In this document: in pieces, positions 51,471 through 63,556 of the stretch
Position numbering within the stretch: the stretch's first letter is position 1
Layout of the letters: the number at the start of each line of letters is the position of its first letter
Source of the DNA: Candidatus Bathyarchaeota archaeon
GTDB lineage: Archaea; Thermoproteota; Bathyarchaeia; Bathyarchaeales; Bathycorpusculaceae
DNA length: 64,000 bases
NCBI GenBank assembly: GCA_963775685.1
Contig: CAVZJV010000014.1
Coordinates: 1,696,001 to 1,760,000, forward strand
Direction of reading: 5' to 3'
The notes under the pieces: generated by a model
What the model was told of the DNA's origin: nothing
Databases searched by the model: none
The model's input: only the letters and a program-made list of their open reading frames with translations
Translations under genes and position numbers: made by a program

Positions 51471-52251
51471 TTAATTTAGGATTCTTCTCGCGTCGACATT
51501 ATACCCGCAGTTGGCGAGTTCTCGAATGAGGGCAAGCTTCCAGCTATCACGGTCGTCAAAGGCGCTAACTTTAATGCCTTCAAAATCAGGGATTGCAAAG
51601 CCTTCACATTCCCTAAAGAAGACAAGAACATTGGCTTTACCGAGCGTTCCTACCAAGAAACCAAGCTCAAAAACCGCGTCCTGCTGGGACTTAAGCTTAC
51701 GTTTCGTTGGCGCTTCATTTCTGCCATAAACAAAATCGTCAGGCGACAATAAAACCACAGCAAAACCAACATCTGAGTAATCCTTGAAGTGAATTGGTTA
51801 AAGCTGCACTGATGGCCTGTTTCATTTCATTATCCGTACCCGAAACAACAAAGATTCTGTGGCGAATGTTTCCCAAAGCGGATGCTGCCGAATCGTTAGG
51901 CTGAGTGGTTTCTTTGGGTGTGAGCAAAAATTTTTCGGTGCAGAGGTAGACGCCTTTCACTTTGCTTTTCAGAATGCTTTCAATAAGGTACTTTTTGTCT
52001 TTGGCAGATACGAGGTTTTCGTAATTTGGCAGGGTTATTTTATCGGCTGTTTCGTATGACCAAAATAAGATAGCTTTGGTGACTTTCAGGGGGTTGAGGA
52101 GTCTACCTGTGAACCAGAAGGGTTGGCCAAAATTGAAGGGTGTGGCAAATGTGCGCACGAGTTCTTCTCGGGAGACGTTGAAGCGGACTCCGGACTTATC
52201 ATGCTCGGCATATTCTAAGTAGATGTGGTATTTTGGCACTTGCAAGCTCAT
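51471..52251 (-). pseudogene. TIR-like nucleotide-binding protein (PF10137/Cap12-type) with internal deletion and frameshift near 51795
   Basis: RIFVVSGTD then, in another frame, DYSDVGFAVVLLSPDD...VFELGFLVG.LG...WKLALIREL. Confidence 0.75.
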
Positions 52252-52958: not shown

Positions 52959-54041
52959 ATGCCAAAAAACTTCACCTACACAGATGCAGGCGTCAATCGA
53001 CAACAGCGCCATGAATCAAAGAAAGCCCTAGTCGCGCTTAAAGAAACATATAAGCACATCGGTTTTGGCGGTATTATGCATTTGCCCTACAGCAACATAT
53101 TCCCAATTGGCGCCAACGCTTTTCTTGATCTTGAAATTGAAGGCGTCGGAACAAAAGTGCTAGTTGCCGACCTCGCAGACAAATATGACACTATTGGTAT
53201 AGATGCAGTGGCAATGGTAGTTAACGATGTTATCCGCTCGGGAGCTAAACCTCTAGCAATTGCAGACAACATCCATGCAACTGCCAGTAAACCTGAACTC
53301 GTAAAAGCTTGGCTCAAAGGCATCATTCAGGGCGCAAATGAATCGGAGTGCCCAGTTACAAACGGCGAGACAGGTGACGTCGCAGAAATAATCAAAGGCA
53401 TCACCCCCAACTCAGGCTTTGACATTGTTATCTCCTCAGTGGGCAAAGTGGAAAGCCAAGACATCATTACGGGCGAAGGCATCAAGCCAGATGACCCAAT
53501 CATTGGCTTAGCCAGCAGCGGCGTCCATAGCAACGGCATCACCCTTGTTCGGAAAATTCTCTTCAAGCAGTGGGGTGGAAAATACCTGCCAAACGACGTA
53601 CCCAAAGGTTTAGACAGGGAAGTTGCACTTGAGGTTTTGGAACCTACAAAAATCTACGTTAAGCCGCTCCTCAAACTCGTACACGAAGTCAAAGTTAAAG
53701 CCGCCGTGCATGTAACAGGCGACGCATTCACCAAATTCAACAACTTGGCGAACTACTCGCCGGGCATAGGCTTTAAGTTCAACAATTTTAAGCCCCAACC
53801 AATCTTTGGATTGATCCAGAAAACTGCCGCTGAACTCGGCTACACCATAACCGACGAGGAAATGTTCAAGACATTTAACATGGGCTGGGGCTTTGGCATT
53901 ATCGTTGACAAAGCAGACACAGATAAAGCCATGGACAACCTTGAGCAAAACAGCATGGTTCCCCAGTTGATAGGCAAAGTCACCAACAAAGAAAGAGTAG
54001 TTGAGATAGAGCACCAGAACAAACGTATGGTTTTAATGTAA
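52959..54041 (+). CDS. purM: AIR synthetase
   Basis: Y.DAGV, EGVGTK, GETG, SSGVHSNG, HVTG, TFNMG. Confidence 0.95.
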   Translation: MPKNFTYTDAGVNRQQRHESKKALVALKETYKHIGFGGIMHLPYSNIFPIGANAFLDLEIEGVGTKVLVADLADKYDTIGIDAVAMVVNDVIRSGAKPLAIADNIHATASKPELVKAWLKGIIQGANESECPVTNGETGDVAEIIKGITPNSGFDIVISSVGKVESQDIITGEGIKPDDPIIGLASSGVHSNGITLVRKILFKQWGGKYLPNDVPKGLDREVALEVLEPTKIYVKPLLKLVHEVKVKAAVHVTGDAFTKFNNLANYSPGIGFKFNNFKPQPIFGLIQKTAAELGYTITDEEMFKTFNMGWGFGIIVDKADTDKAMDNLEQNSMVPQLIGKVTNKERVVEIEHQNKRMVLM

Positions 54042-54098: not shown

Positions 54099-54350
54099 AT
54101 GAAATACGCTGCAAAAATTGAAGTCAGCCTCAAACCCGGACACAGCAACCCGGAAGGCGAAACCACCGCACGACTACTAATCGAACTCGGCTACAAAGTA
54201 GATGCAGTGGACGTTAGCAAAGTCTACACCGTAACCCTTGACGCAGCCTCACCAAAGGAAGCCAAAGCAAAAGCTGAAGAAATGAGCAAACGCCTCCTGG
54301 CAAACCCAACCAAAGACAACTACACCATAAGCGTCGCTGAGCAGAAATGA
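54099..54350 (+). CDS. purS: FGAM synthase subunit PurS
   Basis: LKPG..NPEG, LLANP. Confidence 0.95.
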   Translation: MKYAAKIEVSLKPGHSNPEGETTARLLIELGYKVDAVDVSKVYTVTLDAASPKEAKAKAEEMSKRLLANPTKDNYTISVAEQK

Positions 54351-56734
54351 ACTCGGAACTCTATACCCAACGCAAAAACAGCCAAGTTTTAGAATTTCCC
54401 ATAGCAAAAGCCACCAAAGAGCAGCTTTCTGAAATTAACAACGAACTTGCTTTGGGATTTAGCGCAGAAGAACTGGATGCAATCCAAGCTTATTTTAAAA
54501 AAGAAAAACGCAATCCCACTAATGTGGAGTTGCAAACAATAAGTCAAACGTGGAGTGAGCATTGCTGCCACAAAACGTTTAAGGGCAAAATCCAACTCAA
54601 CGGCAAAGAAATCCAAAGCCTCTTTAAAACCTACATCGCAAAAGCCACGAAACAAATCAAAGCACCTTGGTGCGTAAGCGTTTTTGAGGACAACGCAGGC
54701 ATCGTAAAGTTTGACAAAGGCTATGGAATCGCGGCAAAGGTGGAAACACACAATCACCCATCCGCTGTGGAGCCGTTTGGAGGGGCAGCAACAGGCGTGG
54801 GCGGTGTTATCCGCGACATTTTAGGTGTGTGGGCTGACCCAATTGCGTGCACCGACGTTTTGGGTTTTGGACCCTTAGATTACGATTACAGTAAACTTCC
54901 AGCAGGCGTTAAACACCCAAAATACTTGTACATGGGCGTAACAGCAGGCATCAGCGCATATGGTAACAACATGGGCATCCCAACAGTCAACGGCGCAATA
55001 TACTTCGACGACAGCTACACGGGCAACGTCATAGTGTACTGCGGTTGCATCGGACTCTTACCCCTAAACAAGTACAACAAAAACGCTAAAATCGGAGACA
55101 TAGTTGTTTTGGCAGGCGGCAAAACAGGACGCGACGGCATCCACGGCGTAACCTTCGCATCCGCTGAACTCACCGAAAAATCAGAAGAAATCTCAAGACC
55201 CGCCGTACAAATAGCTGACCCAATCGAGGAAGAAAAAGTCAAACGGGCAATTATAGAGATTCGGGACTTGCGGTTGGGCTCGGCAATAACAGACATTGGC
55301 GGGGGAGGGTTATCTTCAGCTGTAGGTGAAACGGCTGAACGTTTTTGTTGTGGCGTGTCAATTGACTTGGGGAAGGTTCCTTTGAAGTATCAAGGATTAG
55401 CGCCATGGGAAATCTACCTTTCCGAATCCCAAGAACGCATGCTCCTAACTGTGCCGCCCGAGAATTTGGAGCGGGTTATGGCTGTTTTCGAAAAAGAAGA
55501 TGTACAAGCCAGGGCTATCGGTAAACTAATTCCGGAAAGGCGATTGCAACTCAACTACAACAGTGAAATAGTCTCCGATATCGATATGGAGTTTATGTTC
55601 AATCCCTGTCAAAGCACCAAAGTAGCAACCATCGAGAAGCCAAAACTAACTGAACCAGAGTTTGATGAACCAACAAACATAACAGAAACACTCCTACAAT
55701 TACTCGCAGCCCCCAACATCGCCAGCAAAGAATCTGTGATACGCACCTACGACCACGAAGTCAAGGGCAACACAGCCCTCAAACCCCTACAAGGCGAGTA
55801 CGCTGGACCAAACGACGCAGCAGTTCTCAAACCGTTGGACGATTCGATGAAGGGCTTAGTTATATCATGCGGCATGAACCCAAACTACGGCAAGATTGAT
55901 GCTTACTGGATGGCGGCTTCAGCAATCGACGAAGCCATGCGAAACAACATAGCTGTCGGTGGAAGAAGAATTTCGCTTTTGGACAATTTTACTTGGGGAA
56001 ACCCAGAGAAAACAGAACGGTTAGGCTCACTGGTGAGAGCTTGTCAAGCGTGCTACGATTTCTCGGTGGCGTTCAAGGCACCGTTTATTTCAGGAAAAGA
56101 CAGCCTCTACAACGAGTCGCCACTGGGTCCCGTGACCCCAACGCTCCTAATAACGGCAGTCGGCGTAATCTCCAACATCCAATCAACCATAAGCATGGAC
56201 CTCAAAACCCCAGGCAACAACCTCTACATCATCGGCGAAACATTCAACGAACTAGGCGGCAGCGAATACTACAAACTCAAAGGCTTCTCAGGTGTATCCG
56301 TCCCTAAAGTCAAAGGCGCAAAGGCCAAACGAACCTTCAAAGCCGTCACCAAAGCCATCGACGCAGGCTTAGTTAAATCGTGCCACGACCTTTCGGAAGG
56401 AGGGTTAGCTGTGGCGGCAGCGGAGATGGCGTTTGCAGGTGGCTATGGCTTAGAAATCAATTTGCAAAAAGTCCCAGGCAAAGACCTTGCGCGCAACGAC
56501 TTTGTATTGTTCTCTGAATCCAACAGCCGGTTCCTAATGGAGGTCATAGAAGCAGACAAAGAAGACTTTGAGGACTTAATGAAAGGCAAAAGCTGCATCC
56601 TGATAGGAAAAGTAACCAAAGAACAAAAACTAAAAATCAAAGGCCTACATGGAAAAGCTGTGGTTGATTTAGCACTTGAAACGCTTCGGCGCAGCTGGAA
56701 GAGAACTTTGAGTTCAGAGAAGATGCCACAATGA
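54347..56734 (+). CDS. purL: FGAM synthase subunit PurL
   Basis: WSEHCCHK, ETHNHPS, GRDGIHG, SESQERM, SGKDSLYN, HDLSEGG. Confidence 0.97.
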   Translation: MNSELYTQRKNSQVLEFPIAKATKEQLSEINNELALGFSAEELDAIQAYFKKEKRNPTNVELQTISQTWSEHCCHKTFKGKIQLNGKEIQSLFKTYIAKATKQIKAPWCVSVFEDNAGIVKFDKGYGIAAKVETHNHPSAVEPFGGAATGVGGVIRDILGVWADPIACTDVLGFGPLDYDYSKLPAGVKHPKYLYMGVTAGISAYGNNMGIPTVNGAIYFDDSYTGNVIVYCGCIGLLPLNKYNKNAKIGDIVVLAGGKTGRDGIHGVTFASAELTEKSEEISRPAVQIADPIEEEKVKRAIIEIRDLRLGSAITDIGGGGLSSAVGETAERFCCGVSIDLGKVPLKYQGLAPWEIYLSESQERMLLTVPPENLERVMAVFEKEDVQARAIGKLIPERRLQLNYNSEIVSDIDMEFMFNPCQSTKVATIEKPKLTEPEFDEPTNITETLLQLLAAPNIASKESVIRTYDHEVKGNTALKPLQGEYAGPNDAAVLKPLDDSMKGLVISCGMNPNYGKIDAYWMAASAIDEAMRNNIAVGGRRISLLDNFTWGNPEKTERLGSLVRACQACYDFSVAFKAPFISGKDSLYNESPLGPVTPTLLITAVGVISNIQSTISMDLKTPGNNLYIIGETFNELGGSEYYKLKGFSGVSVPKVKGAKAKRTFKAVTKAIDAGLVKSCHDLSEGGLAVAAAEMAFAGGYGLEINLQKVPGKDLARNDFVLFSESNSRFLMEVIEADKEDFEDLMKGKSCILIGKVTKEQKLKIKGLHGKAVVDLALETLRRSWKRTLSSEKMPQ

Positions 56735-57549
56735 ACACCGAGGACATTAAAATCTGCGTGCTGCGTGTCGGCGGAACCAACTGCGACGCTGAAACCCAAC
56801 GCGCCTTCCAAGAACTCGGTGTACAAGCCGAAACGGTACATGTTAACGAACTTATCAAACGCCGCAACCTGCTCGATTACAACGTGCTGGTTTTCCCAGG
56901 CGGCTTCTCATTTGGCGACTACGTACGTTCAGGCGTCATCTTTGCAAGGCATCTTTCAACCCAATTAGGGAAGGAAATTGAAACCTTCGTTGACGAAGGC
57001 AGACCAATATTGGGTATTTGCAATGGATTCCAAATCCTCGTCGAATACGGTTTGCTCCCAGGATTCCAAGGAATAAGTACCTACCCCGAAGCAACGTTAA
57101 CAACCAATGAACCAGCAGGCTTCAAGTGCCAATGGGTTTACCTAAAACAGGAAAACAAGAGCAAATGCGCCTTCACAAGTAAAATCCCCGCCGAAAAAAC
57201 CATCCAGCTACCAATTGCACACGGTGAAGGAAGATTACTCTTCCCTAAGGAAAAAGAAGAGTCTCTACTAAAGAAACTGATCGACGAAGACATGCTGGTT
57301 TTCCGTTACTGCACCAAGGAAGGAAAAGTAGCCGACAGCAAATACCCCGCCAACCCGAACGGTTCATTCTACGACATAGCAGGCATCTGCAACAGAGAAG
57401 GCAACATTTTTGGTTTGATGCCACATCCCGAGAGGGCAATGTACTGGTGGCAACAACCCGACTGGACACGCCAACAACAAATGCTACAGTACGGCGACGG
57501 CAAACTAATCTTCCAAAGCATCATCGATAAACTAACCAAGAAGTGCTAA
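56731..57549 (+). CDS. purQ: FGAM synthase glutaminase subunit PurQ
   Basis: GGFSFGD, GICNGFQ, AHGEG, MPHPER. Confidence 0.97.
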   Translation: MNTEDIKICVLRVGGTNCDAETQRAFQELGVQAETVHVNELIKRRNLLDYNVLVFPGGFSFGDYVRSGVIFARHLSTQLGKEIETFVDEGRPILGICNGFQILVEYGLLPGFQGISTYPEATLTTNEPAGFKCQWVYLKQENKSKCAFTSKIPAEKTIQLPIAHGEGRLLFPKEKEESLLKKLIDEDMLVFRYCTKEGKVADSKYPANPNGSFYDIAGICNREGNIFGLMPHPERAMYWWQQPDWTRQQQMLQYGDGKLIFQSIIDKLTKKC

Positions 57550-58446
57550 ATCCTTAGCGTAAGGCAATCCCGTGCGAGCACCCATCACCGTAACGCTTCG
57601 GGAAGCAACAAAATTGGCAAGTTGTCCGCATTCGTAAAGGGTTTTACCATGGATTAATCCGTAAAGAAAACCCGCGTCGAATGCATCTCCTGCGCCAGTC
57701 GTGTCGACAACTTTTACTTTGAAGGGGTCTATGCTAAGTCTTTCTTGTCCGTCAGTGACGTAGCAGCCCTTGGCGCCAAGTTTTACCGCAACTATTTTGA
57801 CGCCCATCGCAATCATGAAGTCGGCGCCTTTGCGGTAATCAGTTTCGCCGGTTATTTGTTCAAGTTCAATGAGGTTAGGCAGCAAAACGTAAGAATTCCT
57901 AATCATCGGCTCTATTACGGCAAAACCTTTCTGTGCATACAGTGAACCGGGGTCAAAGCTGATTTTAACTTCATCAGGCAACGAACTTAACAGCTTTTTT
58001 TGTGCACGAAAAGATTTCTCGCCCACAAAGGAAGATAAGTGCAAGAATTTGGATTGGGAAACGTATTCCCATTTGATCTCGCGGGGCTCAACTAAGTCGT
58101 TGACGCCTGAGTTTATGTAGAGGGCTCTTGCGCCTTTTCTGTCCACAAAACCCATCACTACGCCGCTCTTGCCTTTCGTTGCCACTGTTATGCCATTGAT
58201 GTCGACACCTTCGGTCTTTAAATTGTCGATTTGAAGTTTTCCTTCGCGGTCGTCTGCGACTTTCCCGATGAAGCCTACTTTGCCGGCTAGCCTAGCCAAC
58301 CCAACTATGGTGTTTGCAGCTGAACCTCCGCAGGCTTCCGTGTAGTCTTCAATGAAGCTTTCTTCTTCCGCACATACAAGTCGCTGCACTTTGAAAAGCA
58401 TATCGACATTAAGTGCACCAAAACCTATTACATCAAATTTTGTCAT
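57532..58446 (-). CDS. PfkB/ribokinase-family kinase (EhaT-like)
   Basis: GFGALNVD, GGSAAN, DTTGAGDAF; ATGA overlap with the upstream gene. Confidence 0.92.
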   Translation of the reverse strand: MTKFDVIGFGALNVDMLFKVQRLVCAEEESFIEDYTEACGGSAANTIVGLARLAGKVGFIGKVADDREGKLQIDNLKTEGVDINGITVATKGKSGVVMGFVDRKGARALYINSGVNDLVEPREIKWEYVSQSKFLHLSSFVGEKSFRAQKKLLSSLPDEVKISFDPGSLYAQKGFAVIEPMIRNSYVLLPNLIELEQITGETDYRKGADFMIAMGVKIVAVKLGAKGCYVTDGQERLSIDPFKVKVVDTTGAGDAFDAGFLYGLIHGKTLYECGQLANFVASRSVTVMGARTGLPYAKDLALLG

Positions 58447-59348
58447 GAAAATAGCTCTCTTAATTGGATTTTGTATTCGCCAAGTTTACCGCCGTAGTTA
58501 CCACCGGAGACCCGTACAACCCCTTCAATGTCTAATACTGCGTTTATACCTTTTTTTGTGGCTTCTTTGATTGCGTCTAAGGAAATCCCGTCATAAACGA
58601 TTTCGGCGATGTATCCCACGCCATCTGGAACCAGTGATTCCGCGCCTAAGCGTGCCTTGAGCGAGGGACAGTGGAGGTGGTTGGTTGTTGGTCCGATTTT
58701 TGGGAAGTGGGTTTCGGGTTTAGAGCCTGCGGAGCAAATGTCAAAGGTGGTCACGACGCCATAAACCTTATGAATGGACTTTAAGGCTTTGGCGCCCGCT
58801 TCCTTAAGCGCTTGTTTAGTGCCACACATTACCCAGAAATTGCCGCCCATCACCCCGCGCGCATAACCCAAGTAACGTTCGACAACAAAGTCCGGAACCA
58901 TCAATGGAACCACAATGACCTCTCTACCATACCGAGTTTCAACCCACTCGTAACCATCGCCACAGTGACCTACACGCTCCATCATGTCCAATTTCCCCTC
59001 AGCTCTCGGCAGGGCGTCGAATACAGCCGTGAATGGTTTTACAAGTATGTCTTGGCGAATACGATAGGACAACTCAGTTTCGAATTTTTTTAGGGATTCT
59101 TGGAAGGTTTTTTTCGGGCTAATTTCTCCCCAGAACTGCAGGATTGCGCCAACCCTTTTATCCGGAGTTTCGTTTGGGCGGAGGTATTTTTCTACCCCGC
59201 CTTCTGTTCTGCCTATAACAACCGATGGAGTTGCAGTCGAGTCTTCGGCTGCTTTACGCAATGTTTCGGGATCGTCGGCAGTCAGTATTATGCGGCAGAA
59301 TACACCCGCGAACGCTTCGATGTAAGTATCATCGATTTTTTTATTCAT
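58443..59348 (-). CDS. Formylmethanofuran:H4MPT formyltransferase paralog (Ftr-II / EhaS-like)
   Basis: DTYIEAF, ETPD.R.G, GGNF, GNYGGKLG (Ftr fold) with divergent TATP..IGR.EGG, RIRQDILVKP, VGHCGDGYEW. Confidence 0.85.
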   Translation of the reverse strand: MNKKIDDTYIEAFAGVFCRIILTADDPETLRKAAEDSTATPSVVIGRTEGGVEKYLRPNETPDKRVGAILQFWGEISPKKTFQESLKKFETELSYRIRQDILVKPFTAVFDALPRAEGKLDMMERVGHCGDGYEWVETRYGREVIVVPLMVPDFVVERYLGYARGVMGGNFWVMCGTKQALKEAGAKALKSIHKVYGVVTTFDICSAGSKPETHFPKIGPTTNHLHCPSLKARLGAESLVPDGVGYIAEIVYDGISLDAIKEATKKGINAVLDIEGVVRVSGGNYGGKLGEYKIQLRELFS

Positions 59349-60440
59349 TTACCCAAGTCCTCCAATATCTATGCCCCGAACCTTATTGCGAAACATGCAA
59401 CTCTCTTTCACAAGTGCGTCCACATTTTGAGGAGTGATAATTTGAACGCTCGGCAAGGCTCCAGGATATACTGAATAAAGCTGTTTTAGGAAAACAGAGT
59501 TTACACCGCTCTCTTCTACCGCTTGTTTGCACCAAAACAAAATCACTTTTAGAGTCTGGGCTTTTCCCAACCTACAGAACAAGTCAGCAACTAGGGCGGT
59601 AATGAGATTGCTTTCGGAGAACACTGCAACCTCAGCGCTCCTAACAGCATAACTGTTGCCATTAAAAGAGACAGCTAAGCCACCACCAGCGCGGACCAGT
59701 TTGAAGGCTTCCATGTCGGTTATGCTGTCGCCAACATAGATTACATCCGCCAATCGTACGCCTAAACGTTTTGCAGCATCACGTATAGCCTCAGCTTTTT
59801 GTGCCCCACCAACCGTAACCACATCTGTGAGGAATTTGCCAACAAACATTTTGGGGACGTCACTCCAGAAGATCTCATCCAACCGCTGGATCACCGATAG
59901 GTCGCTATGGGAAAAATCTTGAAGAGTTCTTGCCCCAAGTGGAATATCGATTAACTGCATTTGCGCGATTTCTTGCGCTATTTCCTTTAAACGCTCTTTT
60001 TCTTGGGGAGTTATGGCGATTTTGTCGAGGCTGACTTTGGTGCAGTAAGTGTTTTTGTATGGGAAATCGACGACGGTGCAAAGGGCGCGGATGTAGTGTT
60101 CATAACTGGTGCTGACGATGAAGGCGTCGGCTATGTCTTGTATATAGTGTAGGGTGGTTTGGGTGTTGGCGATTAGTAGGATGTTTTGGGCAGAGAACTC
60201 TTCCATCTGGCGGTCGGTTACGCCATATGCTTTGAAGAAGGGCAAAATGAGCTTTAACGTGCTGCCCGCGGAATACCCAGGTTTCTTCAGTATATCTGCA
60301 AGCGTATCGTCGTATTTGCTGATATTAGCAAAAAAGCTGTCACCGTTTGGAATAAAATTAGCCGCCAACTCAAACGCATTATCATTTTTTGAGATAGGTC
60401 CTTCGCAATCAGAAACAAAAACACGCTTCAAACCCTGCAC
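59349..60440 (-). CDS. HAD-like protein (COG4030 / EhaR-like)
   Basis: SDCEGPISKNDNAFEL, AG.TLKLILPFF, VSTSY, VGDSITD, SFNGN.YA. Confidence 0.85.
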   Translation of the reverse strand: MQGLKRVFVSDCEGPISKNDNAFELAANFIPNGDSFFANISKYDDTLADILKKPGYSAGSTLKLILPFFKAYGVTDRQMEEFSAQNILLIANTQTTLHYIQDIADAFIVSTSYEHYIRALCTVVDFPYKNTYCTKVSLDKIAITPQEKERLKEIAQEIAQMQLIDIPLGARTLQDFSHSDLSVIQRLDEIFWSDVPKMFVGKFLTDVVTVGGAQKAEAIRDAAKRLGVRLADVIYVGDSITDMEAFKLVRAGGGLAVSFNGNSYAVRSAEVAVFSESNLITALVADLFCRLGKAQTLKVILFWCKQAVEESGVNSVFLKQLYSVYPGALPSVQIITPQNVDALVKESCMFRNKVRGIDIGGLG

Positions 60441-61840
60441 CTCAACTGCTCCATGTGTCTGACGCTTTTGGCTATGTGATGTTTTTCTGCCACGTCGGTT
60501 CGGTTCCAGAGCGCACCACCCTTGATTGCTTTGGCGCCTTCTTGGCTTATTTGGCGTGCTTCCTCGATGCTACTGCCTATTCCCAGAATACCGATAGCAC
60601 GGGATTTGAGCGCATAGTTTTTGCCGTCACGTACCTCCATGGAGCCTGGGTAGATGCGGATTTTGTCGCCGTACTTTTCGGTTAGGTCTTCGGCTTTAGT
60701 TAGATCGACCGGTGTGTTGATGAAGGCTTTATCCACTTTGTCTGGGTGTGCTTCGGCGTAGCCGCCGTAGTCTGCGGGAACCTTATAGGTCAGCACCGTC
60801 GCCGACTTCTCCATAGCGACCCCCTTCAGGTTGCCGTCAATCATTCTGAGGCATACGTCGACGAAGTCGTTTTTAATGACCGGGAGGAGGTTCATGATTT
60901 CGGGATCTCCTGGGCGACTGTTTATTTCTAGGATTTTTATGTCTTTGCCCGTGTGAATGAAAGCAAGGTAGAGTGGAACGCCGCGGAGTGCCGAATCGTC
61001 AAGGATTTTTGCCTTCCATCCATTGAAAACCCGGTCAGCTAAAGCAAGTTCTTGTTCACGTTCAGAGGCAGTGAGGAAAGGCAGGTAATCGCCGACATCT
61101 TTGTATGAACCCATACCGCCTGTGTTTGGGCCTTTGTCATCATCGAAGGCGCGTTTGTAGTCGCGGGTGTCGGGCAACATCATGAAGTGTTTGCCGTCGC
61201 AGAACCCCATACAACTGGATTCTTCCCCGTCAATTTTTTCCTCTATAATTACTGAGTCATATTGGAAGTTAGACATGAAATGCTCGAAAAGTTGTTCGCG
61301 GTTTGCGAAGTGGTCTCCCCAAACGCCCACGCCTTTACCCAAGGCCGGTTTGTCAGGTTTAACCACAGCCTGATTATCGAGTTCGTCTAGCCACTCGTAA
61401 ACAGCCTTTCGTACATCTTTGCCTTTGTAATCGGTAGGGTGGAAAATCCGAAAACGGGGATTAGCGTCCGGCGCAATCTCCTCGAAGAGTATGCGTTGGG
61501 CAATTTTGCTGCCTTCGATGGCGTAGTCTTTTTTGGGGCAGATGACAGGTATGCCGGTTTGTTCCTCGACTAAGTCGCGTATGCCCTCAATTATGGGTTT
61601 CTCGGAGCCAACCATAACGAAGTCCAGGTTCTCCTTGTTTTCTTGGGCAAACTTGCATACTTCGTCAATGTTGAGGTTTGGGATGACTTTGTGTTTGGCG
61701 GCGTGTTTTGCATTGAAGGGATTGCGTTGTTTGTCGGCAACGAAAAGTTCAACTCGGTAGTTATTGCTTCTTAAAAGTGCGTCTGCCATAGCGACTTCCC
61801 GTGCGCCGTAAGAAACTAGTAGGATGCCTATCTTCTCCAT
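60428..61840 (-). CDS. purD: Phosphoribosylamine-glycine ligase
   Basis: GARE, EGSK, GKGV, DYKRAFDDDKGPNTGGMG, EINSRPGDPE. Confidence 0.93.
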   Translation of the reverse strand: MEKIGILLVSYGAREVAMADALLRSNNYRVELFVADKQRNPFNAKHAAKHKVIPNLNIDEVCKFAQENKENLDFVMVGSEKPIIEGIRDLVEEQTGIPVICPKKDYAIEGSKIAQRILFEEIAPDANPRFRIFHPTDYKGKDVRKAVYEWLDELDNQAVVKPDKPALGKGVGVWGDHFANREQLFEHFMSNFQYDSVIIEEKIDGEESSCMGFCDGKHFMMLPDTRDYKRAFDDDKGPNTGGMGSYKDVGDYLPFLTASEREQELALADRVFNGWKAKILDDSALRGVPLYLAFIHTGKDIKILEINSRPGDPEIMNLLPVIKNDFVDVCLRMIDGNLKGVAMEKSATVLTYKVPADYGGYAEAHPDKVDKAFINTPVDLTKAEDLTEKYGDKIRIYPGSMEVRDGKNYALKSRAIGILGIGSSIEEARQISQEGAKAIKGGALWNRTDVAEKHHIAKSVRHMEQLRCRV

Positions 61841-61889: not shown

Positions 61890-63371
61890 TTACGGCTGGA
61901 CTTCTTCAGATTCGTAAATCCTGTTTTTCTCTTCATAGCCTTCGAGGAAACGTTTTTTCATGACATCAGACATTTTCTGCGCACACAGCGTCGGGTACTT
62001 GCCAGTGACGCAGGCTAAGCAAAGTTGGTTTTCGGTTTGTCCTGTGGCCCCGATTAAGCCCTCCAACGACTGGTAGCATACGGCGTCGGCGCCGATAATT
62101 TTGGCGATTTCTTCAGGATTATTTCGAGATCCGATAAGCTGCCCATAAGTGGACATGTCGATCCCGTAGAAACAGGGTCCGATGATTCGCGGGAAAGTCA
62201 CGAAAAGATACACTTTTTTGGCGCCTGCCTTGCGGAGTTTTTCTATAATGACTTTGGTGGTGTCGCCGCGGACAACGCTGTCTTCGGTTATTATAACTCG
62301 TTTGCCTGCTACTTTGCTGCCGAGAATGTTGATTTTTTTGTCGATAGTTGAGTAGCGTTCGTTGTTGAGCAATATGAAGGCACGTTCGGTTACGTAGCGG
62401 TGGCGTCTTGAGGCACGTTCCCATCTTAGACCTGACGCTTCATGGACTCCCATTGCTGGGTCGTCGCCGGTTTCAGGCACCGACATGATGATGTCGCTGT
62501 CTTTTACGATTTCTGGGAATTCTTTAACAAGGTTTCTTCCGAATTCTTCTCGGATTTCGTAGACGTATTTGCCGTCAAAACGTGAGTCGGGTCTTGCAAA
62601 ATAAGCGTATTCGAAACAGCAGAAGGCTTCACGTGGATTCTCTATGATTTGGGTGCGTTTGAAGCCGTTTTCCGAAACCGTCACGAGCTCGCCGGGTTTC
62701 AACTCGAAGTCTCTCACAAAACTATTCATGTCTAAGCTTACGGTTTCAGAGGAAAAAGCGAAAGTTTTGCCTTCAGGGTCATGTCCAGCGCACAATGGCT
62801 TTATGCCATAGGGGTCTTTGAAGGCAAAGAATTGGCCATCGCCTGTTATGCCTGTTACGGAGAATGCGCCGTCCAAGGTTTTCATAACGGTGCCAGCTGC
62901 AGAGGTTAAGTCTTGACCCTGTTTTAAGGCAAGGAGCATTTTATGGCACACAATGTCAGAGTCGCAGTTGTAAAGAAAATCAGAAAAGTTTTGGTTCATC
63001 TCTTTTTTGAGCGGCAACGTGTTAACGATGTTGCCGTTAAAGGAGAGGGCAAGTTTTATTCTGCCTGAGGAGGCAAGGACAGGTTGTGTTCCGTCGATTA
63101 TGGAGACGTCGTCGCATTTGCCTGAGGTTGTGTAGCGTACATTACCGATGCCGATGGATCCAGGTAGACGTGCGAACCATTCAATTATTACGCTTGTTTT
63201 CAGTTTTGGGACAAGATCAAGTGCTTTGTAGGTATAAAATTGGTTATTGTTGCTTGTTAGGAAACCGTGTGATTGGTGTCCTCGATGATTTTGGGCTCGT
63301 AGTCCCCAGTAAACATAAGGGAAAACGGGTTTTTTATCGTAATTTATTGCACCAAAGATACCGCAGCCTAT
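61890..63371 (-). CDS. purF: Amidophosphoribosyltransferase; the frame extends to CGIFG at 63365 with no canonical start (ATA at 63371 is the candidate)
   Basis: CGIFG, NHRGH, RYTT, NGN, CCFEYAYFARPDS, EDSVVRG.T, CFYGID, CLAC. Confidence 0.93.
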   Translation of the reverse strand: MGCGIFGAINYDKKPVFPYVYWGLRAQNHRGHQSHGFLTSNNNQFYTYKALDLVPKLKTSVIIEWFARLPGSIGIGNVRYTTSGKCDDVSIIDGTQPVLASSGRIKLALSFNGNIVNTLPLKKEMNQNFSDFLYNCDSDIVCHKMLLALKQGQDLTSAAGTVMKTLDGAFSVTGITGDGQFFAFKDPYGIKPLCAGHDPEGKTFAFSSETVSLDMNSFVRDFELKPGELVTVSENGFKRTQIIENPREAFCCFEYAYFARPDSRFDGKYVYEIREEFGRNLVKEFPEIVKDSDIIMSVPETGDDPAMGVHEASGLRWERASRRHRYVTERAFILLNNERYSTIDKKINILGSKVAGKRVIITEDSVVRGDTTKVIIEKLRKAGAKKVYLFVTFPRIIGPCFYGIDMSTYGQLIGSRNNPEEIAKIIGADAVCYQSLEGLIGATGQTENQLCLACVTGKYPTLCAQKMSDVMKKRFLEGYEEKNRIYESEEVQP

Positions 63372-63556
63372 CTTCCAGTCCCTTCTAGCAGTAAATGCTC
63401 ATTTATTGAAAGAAGGGGTTTATACGCTTTTAGTACAAATTTAGGTAAAAAACATGTGGTTTTTAACATAATAAGATTGAAAGCAAACAAGTAAGCAAAG
63501 ACGGTAGTTTTAAAAATACTAACGGTTCACATGAGTTAAAAGCAGGTGGCGATTGC

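Follow-up and report, generated by a model that had tools for sequence, protein, structure and literature searches.

The third step of purine synthesis converts glycinamide ribonucleotide (GAR) into formylglycinamide ribonucleotide (FGAR). The genes of the enzymes that perform it, purN and purT, are missing in Archaeoglobi, in M. kandleri and in four species of Methanobacteriales (called Methanomicrobiales there), according to the available text of Brown (2011; PMC3261824). In the accessible part of a later study (Chadwick, 2022; PMC9012536), anaerobic methanotrophic archaea (ANME) of group ANME-1 are likewise without PurN and PurT, and the missing activity, also in Archaeoglobales and Methanobacteriales, is ascribed to 'an as yet unidentified enzyme'. 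We have analyzed a locus that offers a candidate. It lies in a stretch of 64,000 nucleotides, here called the window, from a Candidatus Bathyarchaeota archaeon (assembly GCA_963775685.1, contig CAVZJV010000014.1, positions 1,696,001 to 1,760,000), where genes for a HAD-superfamily protein, a paralog of the formyltransferase Ftr (hereafter Ftr2) and a PfkB-family kinase follow purD, the gene for GAR synthetase. The conclusion that emerges is that the three proteins probably constitute one functional module that carries GAR to FGAR where neither PurN nor PurT is present.

Relatives of these genes have been described in another setting. In the accessible text of Kaster (2011; PMC3087415), EhaS is annotated as Ftr and EhaT as a ribokinase, and they are treated as subunits of the Eha hydrogenase because their genes are co-transcribed. 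An Ftr2 clade is known in ANME-1, Archaeoglobales, M. kandleri and Methanothermobacter (Chadwick, 2022; PMC9012536); in the available portion of that paper the clade and the missing GAR enzyme appear in separate sections and are not connected. The original prediction, an earlier reading of the letters of the window, had pointed to both the Ftr-like and kinase-like genes of the eha operon and the lack of purN and purT in some Methanobacteriales, in agreement with what could be seen of Kaster (2011; PMC3087415) and Brown (2011; PMC3261824), respectively. Our literature search, outside which subscription papers lay, found no publication linking Ftr2, EhaS or this HAD protein to GAR formylation.

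Results

The Purine Locus

Nine genes of the window form two converging operons, purF-purD-HAD-Ftr2-PfkB on the reverse strand and purM-purS-purL-purQ on the forward strand. They are as follows (positions are those of the window).

59349-60440, reverse strand: EhaR-like HAD-superfamily protein of 363 residues, a putative phosphatase (weak HAD Pfam matches)
58443-59348, reverse strand: Ftr2, an Ftr paralog of 301 residues, proposed GAR (or GAR-riboside) formyltransferase (PF01913, 144 bits; PF02741, 166 bits)
57532-58446, reverse strand: PfkB-family kinase of 304 residues (PF00294, 176 bits)
60428-61840, reverse strand: purD, GAR synthetase (step 2), of a divergent type (GARS_N, GARS_A and GARS_C; TIGR00877, 233 bits against a cut-off of 288)
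61890-63017 as listed, reverse strand, with a stop-to-stop frame reaching 63398: purF, amidophosphoribosyltransferase (step 1; TIGR01134, 256 bits on the listed part)
56731-57549, forward strand: purQ, glutaminase subunit of formylglycinamidine ribonucleotide (FGAM) synthase (step 4; NF002252, 324 bits, above cut-off)
54347-56734, forward strand: purL, FGAM synthase (step 4), the consumer of FGAR (TIGR01736, 686 bits, above cut-off)
54099-54350, forward strand: purS (TIGR00302, 68 bits, above cut-off)
52959-54041, forward strand: purM, aminoimidazole ribonucleotide synthetase (step 5; TIGR00878, 258.5 bits, above cut-off)

The genes of the first operon are tightly coupled. purD and the HAD gene overlap by 13 nucleotides, the HAD and Ftr2 genes abut (59349/59348), and Ftr2 and PfkB overlap by 4 nucleotides; PfkB and purQ converge with an overlap of 18 nucleotides. 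The open reading frames (ORFs) and family scans thus bear out the gene order, strands and overlaps that the original prediction had given. It had further claimed that the cluster lacks a GAR transformylase and that no hydrogenase structural genes flank the trio. Both claims stand: family scans of the window ORFs found neither PurN nor PurT within the cluster, and no hydrogenase gene was found in scans of the cluster itself or, by Pfam, among 10 ORFs at 38-52 kb.

Purine Genes in the Source Genome

Does the source genome carry a GAR transformylase elsewhere? The assembly, of 14 contigs and 3.06 Mb, has a completeness of 96.9%; the source names of near-identical proteins point to Bathyarchaeia. 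Across the whole genome there were no matches to PF00551, the family of PurN, Fmt and PurU, and the best match to PurT reached only 49 bits, in a frame of 1139 residues. The genome holds two Ftr genes. One is that of the window, scoring 146 bits with PF01913; the other, 280 kb away, is canonical and scores 186 bits. The genome-wide check that had been proposed therefore found neither purN nor purT, and a separate Ftr was present.

PurH was not found in the source genome. There are, however, two tandem PurP paralogs (253 and 228 bits; G000:C14:1214143-1215782, outside the window), and therefore the formate-dependent formylation of aminoimidazole carboxamide ribonucleotide (AICAR) is covered. 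The available text of Brown (2011; PMC3261824) notes tandem PurP duplications as unexplained. Among the purine steps examined here, 1 to 5 and the formylation of AICAR, GAR formylation is the only one that has no known enzyme in this genome.

Distribution among Bathyarchaeia

The same 151 Bathyarchaeia genomes were searched for Ftr2, PF00551, PurT, PurD, the HAD protein and PfkB. Ftr2 and PF00551 were each found in 59 genomes; 11 have a PurT-like gene (225-303 bits, none up to the curated cut-off). These solutions are almost mutually exclusive, as the original prediction had expected: only one of the 59 Ftr2 genomes (G130) carries a PF00551 gene as well, and PurT-like genes are absent from all 59. 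PurD occurs in 126 genomes, all but three of which (123/126) possess Ftr2, PF00551 or a PurT-like gene. Divided by solution, 56 have Ftr2, 57 have PF00551 (one shared with Ftr2), 11 have a PurT-like gene and three (G041, G050 and G095) have none. Three Ftr2 genomes gave no PurD match. In two of these Ftr2 is located terminally on a short contig; G052, the remaining one, was set aside as a counter-example since a run of N lies inside its purD-HAD region. The solutions also mix within families, f11 having Ftr2 in two genomes, PurN in one and PurT-like genes in seven, and f21 having Ftr2 in three and PurN-like genes in two. A PurN-like type of about 277 residues, like that of G130, seems to be common in family f18.

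The HAD protein follows this pattern still more closely. It occurs in 64 of the 151 genomes, namely all 59 that have Ftr2 and five (G002, G010, G034, G028 and G124) that have a divergent PurN-like gene instead, and in none of the other 87. This association is new here, and the HAD protein is the constant partner of the module. An ortholog of the kinase (at least 47% identity) is present in 53/59 Ftr2 genomes and in 0/92 of the other Bathyarchaeia; in three further genomes the gene beside Ftr2 encodes a more distant PfkB protein. The PurT-type genome G005 contains no PfkB at all.

We also scanned species genomes with an alignment of the HAD protein and retained the best 80 of the 547 loci found. 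The labels of 76 of these were Bathyarchaeia or Thermoproteota. Within these 76, purD lies directly upstream of the HAD gene at 61 of the 65 loci with enough flank, and Ftr2 directly downstream at 51 of 70, with seven more after one inserted gene; PfkB follows Ftr2 at 44 of 47. The arrangement recurs far beyond chance, and the recurring linkage to pur genes that had been predicted was found for purD and purF. In G043 the Ftr2-PfkB pair is located 16 kb from purD-HAD.

Two types of PurD occur in Bathyarchaeia, a canonical one scoring 300-505 bits and a divergent one that stays below the TIGR00877 cut-off with 220-281 bits. Most modules are accompanied by the latter, which is also found without them (family f15), and G031 combines a canonical PurD with the module.

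Some loci carry additional genes. A GH43-like gene (41 bits) is situated between the HAD and Ftr2 genes in some Bathyarchaeia (L029:11081-12058, also L035, L057, L061 and L100), and at L041:5221-6594 purD and the HAD gene are separated by a gene for a GH4 glycosidase (172 bits). Glycosidase genes thus sit inside a module that may handle ribosides. Among public sequencing runs, two soil-metagenome DNA runs had small shares, and no RNA run was listed.

Exchange of the Formyltransferase

In the five Bathyarchaeia genomes that have the HAD protein and no Ftr2, purD is followed by a divergent PurN-like gene of 281 residues. Its best family is TIGR00639, with scores of 74.5 and 51 bits against a cut-off of 150, and the N-x-H-P and D-x-G-P motifs are kept. 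The HAD gene is retained in all five genomes; one formyltransferase has thus been substituted for another without loss of the HAD gene. Directly after the PurN-like gene come the HAD and PfkB genes in G034 and G028; in G010 and G002 these two lie elsewhere in the genome, and the contig of G124 breaks off inside the HAD gene. PfkB is retained in at least four of the five, on the same contig in three.

Similar modules are found in other phyla. The four of the best 80 HAD loci with labels other than Bathyarchaeia or Thermoproteota came from metagenome-assembled genomes (MAGs), one of Methanomassiliicoccales and three of 'Deltaproteobacteria'. All four have genes for PfkB, the PurN-like protein and the HAD protein in a row, the last two products being 41-47% identical to the Bathyarchaeia proteins. 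All four also have a canonical PurD and PurH; none has a PurN above the cut-off or a PurT.

These relationships extend to the phyla concerned, each represented by 151 genomes. In the bacterial phylum the HAD protein is present in 34 genomes, and PurN (E≤1e-30) in 0 of these 34 against 80 of the 117 others (71 over the cut-off); PurT occurs in two genomes, both also having PurN. The phylum of the Methanomassiliicoccales MAG has 25 genomes with the HAD protein, and PurN exceeds the cut-off in 0/25 of them (best score 77.5 bits) against 116/126 of the others. At least seven of those 25 have a weak PurN-like gene next to the HAD gene; five of the 25 were checked for PurT, and none has it. PurH was present in all five PurN-like-module genomes checked.

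The PurN-like enzyme of the module has S-[ST]-G-R-D in place of the SG-x-G-T-N loop. We take this loop to be the holder of the GAR phosphate in E. coli PurN. The altered loop would fit an acceptor without a phosphate, which we regard as a lead only.

The Three Proteins

Ftr2 matches both domains of the Ftr family, PF01913 and PF02741, above their cut-offs and over its full length, and scores 314.5 bits with NF002554 (cut-off 297). It falls below the cut-off of the canonical Ftr equivalog TIGR03119 (214.3 against 292.6 bits). When used as the query against the 151 genomes, Ftr2 gave two classes of match, one of 49-100% identity (at least 260 bits) and one of 34-41% (at most 191 bits); identity to Ftr1-type copies was 36-41% and to Ftr2-type copies 49-100%. 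In a tree of 57 representatives the Ftr2-like proteins form a clade of 19 rows apart from Ftr1 and FhcD, with a support of 99 in the Shimodaira-Hasegawa-like approximate likelihood ratio test (SH-aLRT).

The glutamate that stabilizes the oxyanion, Glu249, is kept in 15/15 Ftr2 and 23/24 Ftr1 sequences, the Glu of AEIVYDG in Ftr2 aligning with that of YEIVING in Ftr1. In FhcD the corresponding residue is Glu252, according to the available text of PMC6926001. Compared with Ftr1, Ftr2 has an insert with an invariant Trp73, together with Met123, Cys129, Gly185, Glu212, Thr213 and Pro220.

A second branch of the Ftr2-like group (P0300, P0406, P0294) bears the source names Lokiarchaeum ossiferum and Promethearchaeota, suggesting that Asgard archaea may hold an Ftr2-related paralog. 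A clade of seven Ftr2-like rows (P0258, P0294, P0300 and others) was ruled out as the EhaS of Methanobacteriales on account of these Lokiarchaeum and Promethearchaeota names. Fused Ftr proteins (P0281, P0288, P0301 and others) were set aside as evidence on Ftr2, being joined to Fmd/Fhc-type domains.

In the HAD protein the motifs D11-x-E13, S110-T111, K215 and GDSITD (237-242) are invariant in 16 sequences. All four HAD motifs are therefore present, the first with Glu in place of the second Asp (Asp-x-Glu). The closest match of known structure is AF1437 (PDB 1Y8A; E=4e-35, 28% identity). An AlphaFold2 model with a predicted local distance difference test score of 92.6 gave Foldseek template-modelling scores of 0.79/0.91 to 1Y8A, followed by phosphoserine phosphatases and ThrH. 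With these motifs and a capped, Rossmann-like fold in the model, the protein has the features expected of a HAD phosphatase. A general phosphoserine phosphatase was rejected because the protein was not found in the 87 Bathyarchaeia genomes that have no module. The JGI name of its relatives is 'energy-converting hydrogenase A subunit R', and one Atlas cluster is named EhaR. In a tree of HAD proteins the bacterial members are placed among those of Bathyarchaeia with weak support.

The kinase has the motifs GGSAANT, NLIE and DTTGAGD of the PfkB/ribokinase family. It scores below the equivalog cut-offs of the TIGR02152 ribokinase and ribose-1-phosphate kinase models (166 against 299.65, 150 against 330 and 129 against 500). 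The kinases of the Ftr2-type modules of Bathyarchaeia and of the PurN-like-type modules of bacteria and the Methanomassiliicoccales MAG form one clade (SH-aLRT 95); those beside the PurN-like genes of Bathyarchaeia fall outside this main clade. The trees support a shared history of the module partners. A predicted complex of the HAD protein, Ftr2 and PfkB (968 residues) scored 0.00 against a mark of 0.32 and is given no weight here.

Other Features of the Window

The purF frame contains the CGIFG catalytic motif, yet the stretch from the upstream TGA to the codon for its Cys (…AAG ATA GGC TGC…; 63017-63398, reverse strand) contains no ATG, GTG or TTG. Relatives of this gene have an ATG start and a propeptide of about eight residues. 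The start in the window could be non-canonical, or could reflect an assembly error or a broken gene. A 170-residue ORF just upstream of purM (51739-52251, reverse strand) matched no Pfam family. The upstream neighbors at 38-50 kb are housekeeping genes, namely lysA, asd, dapB, dapA and those for TFIIB and a class II tRNA synthetase.

Discussion

Distribution and gene context, with the catalytic motifs intact in all three proteins, indicate that GAR formylation is most likely the role of the module. The original prediction had seen here a purine module rather than a set of hydrogenase subunits; this is supported, and every one of its predictions that was checked computationally held. The exchange of the transferase extends this view, and we predict a module whose formyltransferase can be replaced by another, present in three phyla of two domains. 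The transferase would be of the Ftr fold, working with tetrahydromethanopterin (H4MPT), in archaea, and PurN-like, working with folate, elsewhere. By analogy with Ftr and FhcD, Ftr2 would transfer a formyl group from N5-formyl-H4MPT to the primary amine of the glycinamide moiety, GAR or its riboside taking the place of methanofuran. Family membership suggests that N5-formyl-H4MPT is probably the donor, with formyl-methanofuran as the alternative.

How would the three proteins share the work? The original prediction had left a choice between direct formylation of GAR and a route through ribosides. In the latter the HAD protein would remove the 5′-phosphate of GAR, Ftr2 would formylate the resulting glycinamide riboside, and the kinase would use ATP to rephosphorylate the formylglycinamide riboside to FGAR for PurL. 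The gene order purD-HAD-Ftr2-PfkB is the reaction order of this route. Known routes, whether by PurT or by PurN via formate-tetrahydrofolate ligase, each cost one ATP, and the one ATP spent by the kinase would make a low-energy formyl transfer irreversible. The riboside route is the simplest single account, because a phosphatase and a ribokinase-like kinase are tied to two unrelated formyltransferases. Of the two options it is the one that has gained weight, since the HAD gene is kept wherever the PurN-like gene replaces Ftr2, and PfkB was found beside the module where the flank sufficed, in archaea and bacteria alike. We favor it tentatively, at somewhat less than an even chance.

In the strongest rival scheme GAR itself is the substrate of Ftr2, and the HAD protein and the kinase lie off the reaction path, serving perhaps in the salvage of ribose or ribosides, the repair of side products, or regulation. 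Chemically this is the simplest scheme, in which PurL can pull the reaction. It is also in keeping with the separability of Ftr2-PfkB from purD-HAD in some genomes, such as G043, and with the position of the kinases beside PurN-like genes of Bathyarchaeia outside the main kinase clade. The scheme is harder to reconcile with the strict association of the HAD protein with the module (64/64 Bathyarchaeia genomes with it against 0/87 without), with its retention when the fold of the transferase changes, and with the absence of canonical PurN from every HAD-bearing genome of two further phyla. A kinase ortholog in 53/59 Ftr2 genomes against 0/92 others, and the preservation of catalytic motifs in both the HAD protein and the kinase, likewise point away from auxiliary roles. 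Direct formylation is only slightly less likely than the riboside route. All readings other than this and the riboside route are unlikely, even when taken together.

One of these places the trio outside purine synthesis, acting on a cofactor or a sugar derivative, with GAR formylated by some other enzyme. The anti-correlation with PurN would then reflect a folate-free lifestyle, as PurN needs folate and folate-free archaea would lack it for that alone; the eha operon of Methanothermobacter is, moreover, not a purine context. However, Ftr2 is absent as well from all genomes with the folate-independent PurT-like gene (0/11), the PurN-like gene takes the place of Ftr2 after purD, and purD adjoins the HAD gene at 61 of 65 loci. 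In addition, the trios of bacteria and the Methanomassiliicoccales MAG occur in genomes that have the folate-dependent PurH, yet no canonical PurN. We consider a non-purine role improbable.

Formylation of AICAR (step 9) in place of GAR is very improbable. The source genome is without PurH, and AICA-riboside is a known substrate of a PfkB-family enzyme, adenosine kinase. Against this, the same genome has its two PurP genes, PurH accompanies the PurN-like modules in 5/5 genomes checked, and the mutual exclusion involves PurN and PurT, both GAR enzymes, the genes of the trio following purD.

That the trio are subunits of an Eha-type energy-converting hydrogenase, as their names in Methanothermobacter, the JGI name EhaR and the co-transcription of ehaR, ehaS and ehaT with ehaA-Q (Kaster, 2011; PMC3087415, in the part available) would have it, can hardly be maintained when no hydrogenase genes lie in the cluster or among the 10 ORFs at 38-52 kb, when bacteria and the phylum of the Methanomassiliicoccales MAG also have the module, and when the accessible text of the PIRSF paper (PMC2674652) describes the downstream genes as having homologs in unrelated systems and as not tightly linked.

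Several points weigh against the purine module as we propose it, and the enzymatic roles of all three proteins are predictions from sequence. N5-formyl-H4MPT is a weak formyl donor of low group-transfer potential. The argument from ATP that this suggests leaves the folate versions with PurH unexplained; as PurH is present in genomes with the PurN-like module, the thermodynamic reason for a phosphatase-kinase cycle is not obvious there. The genome G130 has, besides its Ftr2 trio, a PurN-like gene of 279 residues in a row with genes for FolD and 5-formyl-tetrahydrofolate cyclo-ligase (L140, G130:C191:465-2834). Eleven Bathyarchaeia loci have purD-HAD with no Ftr2 next to it within the flank covered. 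In the bacterial phylum, 37 of the 151 genomes have neither the HAD protein nor PurN (E≤1e-30) nor PurT; all five checked carry another divergent PurN-like gene, with no HAD gene. The products of those genes are only 25-31% identical to the PurN-like protein of the module. At L119-L121 (G182, G173 and G192), in bacterial genomes that have no canonical PurN, PurT or HAD protein, a further divergent PurN-like type of 242-296 residues scores 41-73 bits. Most Ftr2 genomes belong to a few related families, and because kin are not independent we put no probability on the pattern of exclusivity. The available text of Brown (2011; PMC3261824) argues against methanopterin as the donor, N10-formyl-H4MPT not being believed to donate formyl groups, and that of Chadwick (2022; PMC9012536) attributes both Ftr2 and PurN to ANME-2a and ANME-2b.

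If GAR formylation by the module is nevertheless correct, it provides a candidate for an acknowledged hole in the pathway in Methanobacteriales, Archaeoglobi, Methanopyrus and ANME-1, and extends the problem to Bathyarchaeia and perhaps to Asgard archaea. Bathyarchaeia are among the most abundant archaea of sediments. Ftr, otherwise known only from energy metabolism, would acquire a biosynthetic role, carbon 8 of the purines would be tied to the H4MPT pool, and three 'hydrogenase subunits' would be reassigned. The occurrence of the HAD protein, usually with the kinase, alongside either of two unrelated formyltransferases in place of PurN in three phyla points to an undescribed variant of a textbook pathway. 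Should the riboside route hold, this would be a three-enzyme bypass spanning two domains, in which purine synthesis passes through non-phosphorylated intermediates and an Ftr enzyme serves anabolism.

Such a bypass would also explain why ehaRST rides on the operon of the anaplerotic Eha hydrogenase in Methanobacteriales. Eha, as Lie et al. are said to have reported in 2012, replaces the intermediates at the formyl level that biosynthesis consumes. An operon joining ehaRST to such a hydrogenase would make sense if purine synthesis draws its formyl groups through EhaS.

Comparison with Known Systems

Among enzymes of known structure Ftr2 most resembles Ftr itself (PDB 1FTR/2FHJ, 1M5H and 1M5S), with which it shares two Pfam domains, length and the oxyanion Glu, scoring 146-170 bits against the solved chains. 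It differs as a second copy in a separate clade, encoded in a purine operon, for which the proposed acceptor is GAR or its riboside, not methanofuran. The Ftr homolog FhcD (PDB 6S6Y) passes the formyl group of formyl-H4MPT to a primary amine, the direction proposed for Ftr2 (PMC6926001, in the text available). The similarity of FhcD to Ftr2 is, however, only 94 bits, and FhcD acts within the Fhc complex with bound methylofuran, whereas no Fhc or Fmd partner is found beside Ftr2.

EhaR, EhaS and EhaT, encoded at the end of the Methanothermobacter eha operon, are HAD-like, Ftr-like and ribokinase-like, respectively, the comparison being one of names and descriptions; their carriers lack purN and purT (Brown, 2011; PMC3261824). 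They are linked to the Eha hydrogenase there, and the trio here is linked to none. For the HAD protein the closest solved relative, AF1437 of Archaeoglobus fulgidus (PDB 1Y8A), is itself without an assigned function. PurN, which depends on folate, and PurT, which uses formate and ATP, carry out the step that we propose for the module and show a mutually exclusive distribution with it. Their folds are unrelated to that of Ftr and they act alone, whereas the module always includes the HAD protein and usually the kinase.

In the riboflavin pathway a HAD phosphatase acts on a phosphorylated pyrimidine intermediate, and riboflavin kinase later restores a phosphate. The substrates are different and the kinase acts several steps later; nevertheless, that pathway provides a precedent for dephosphorylation, transformation and rephosphorylation.

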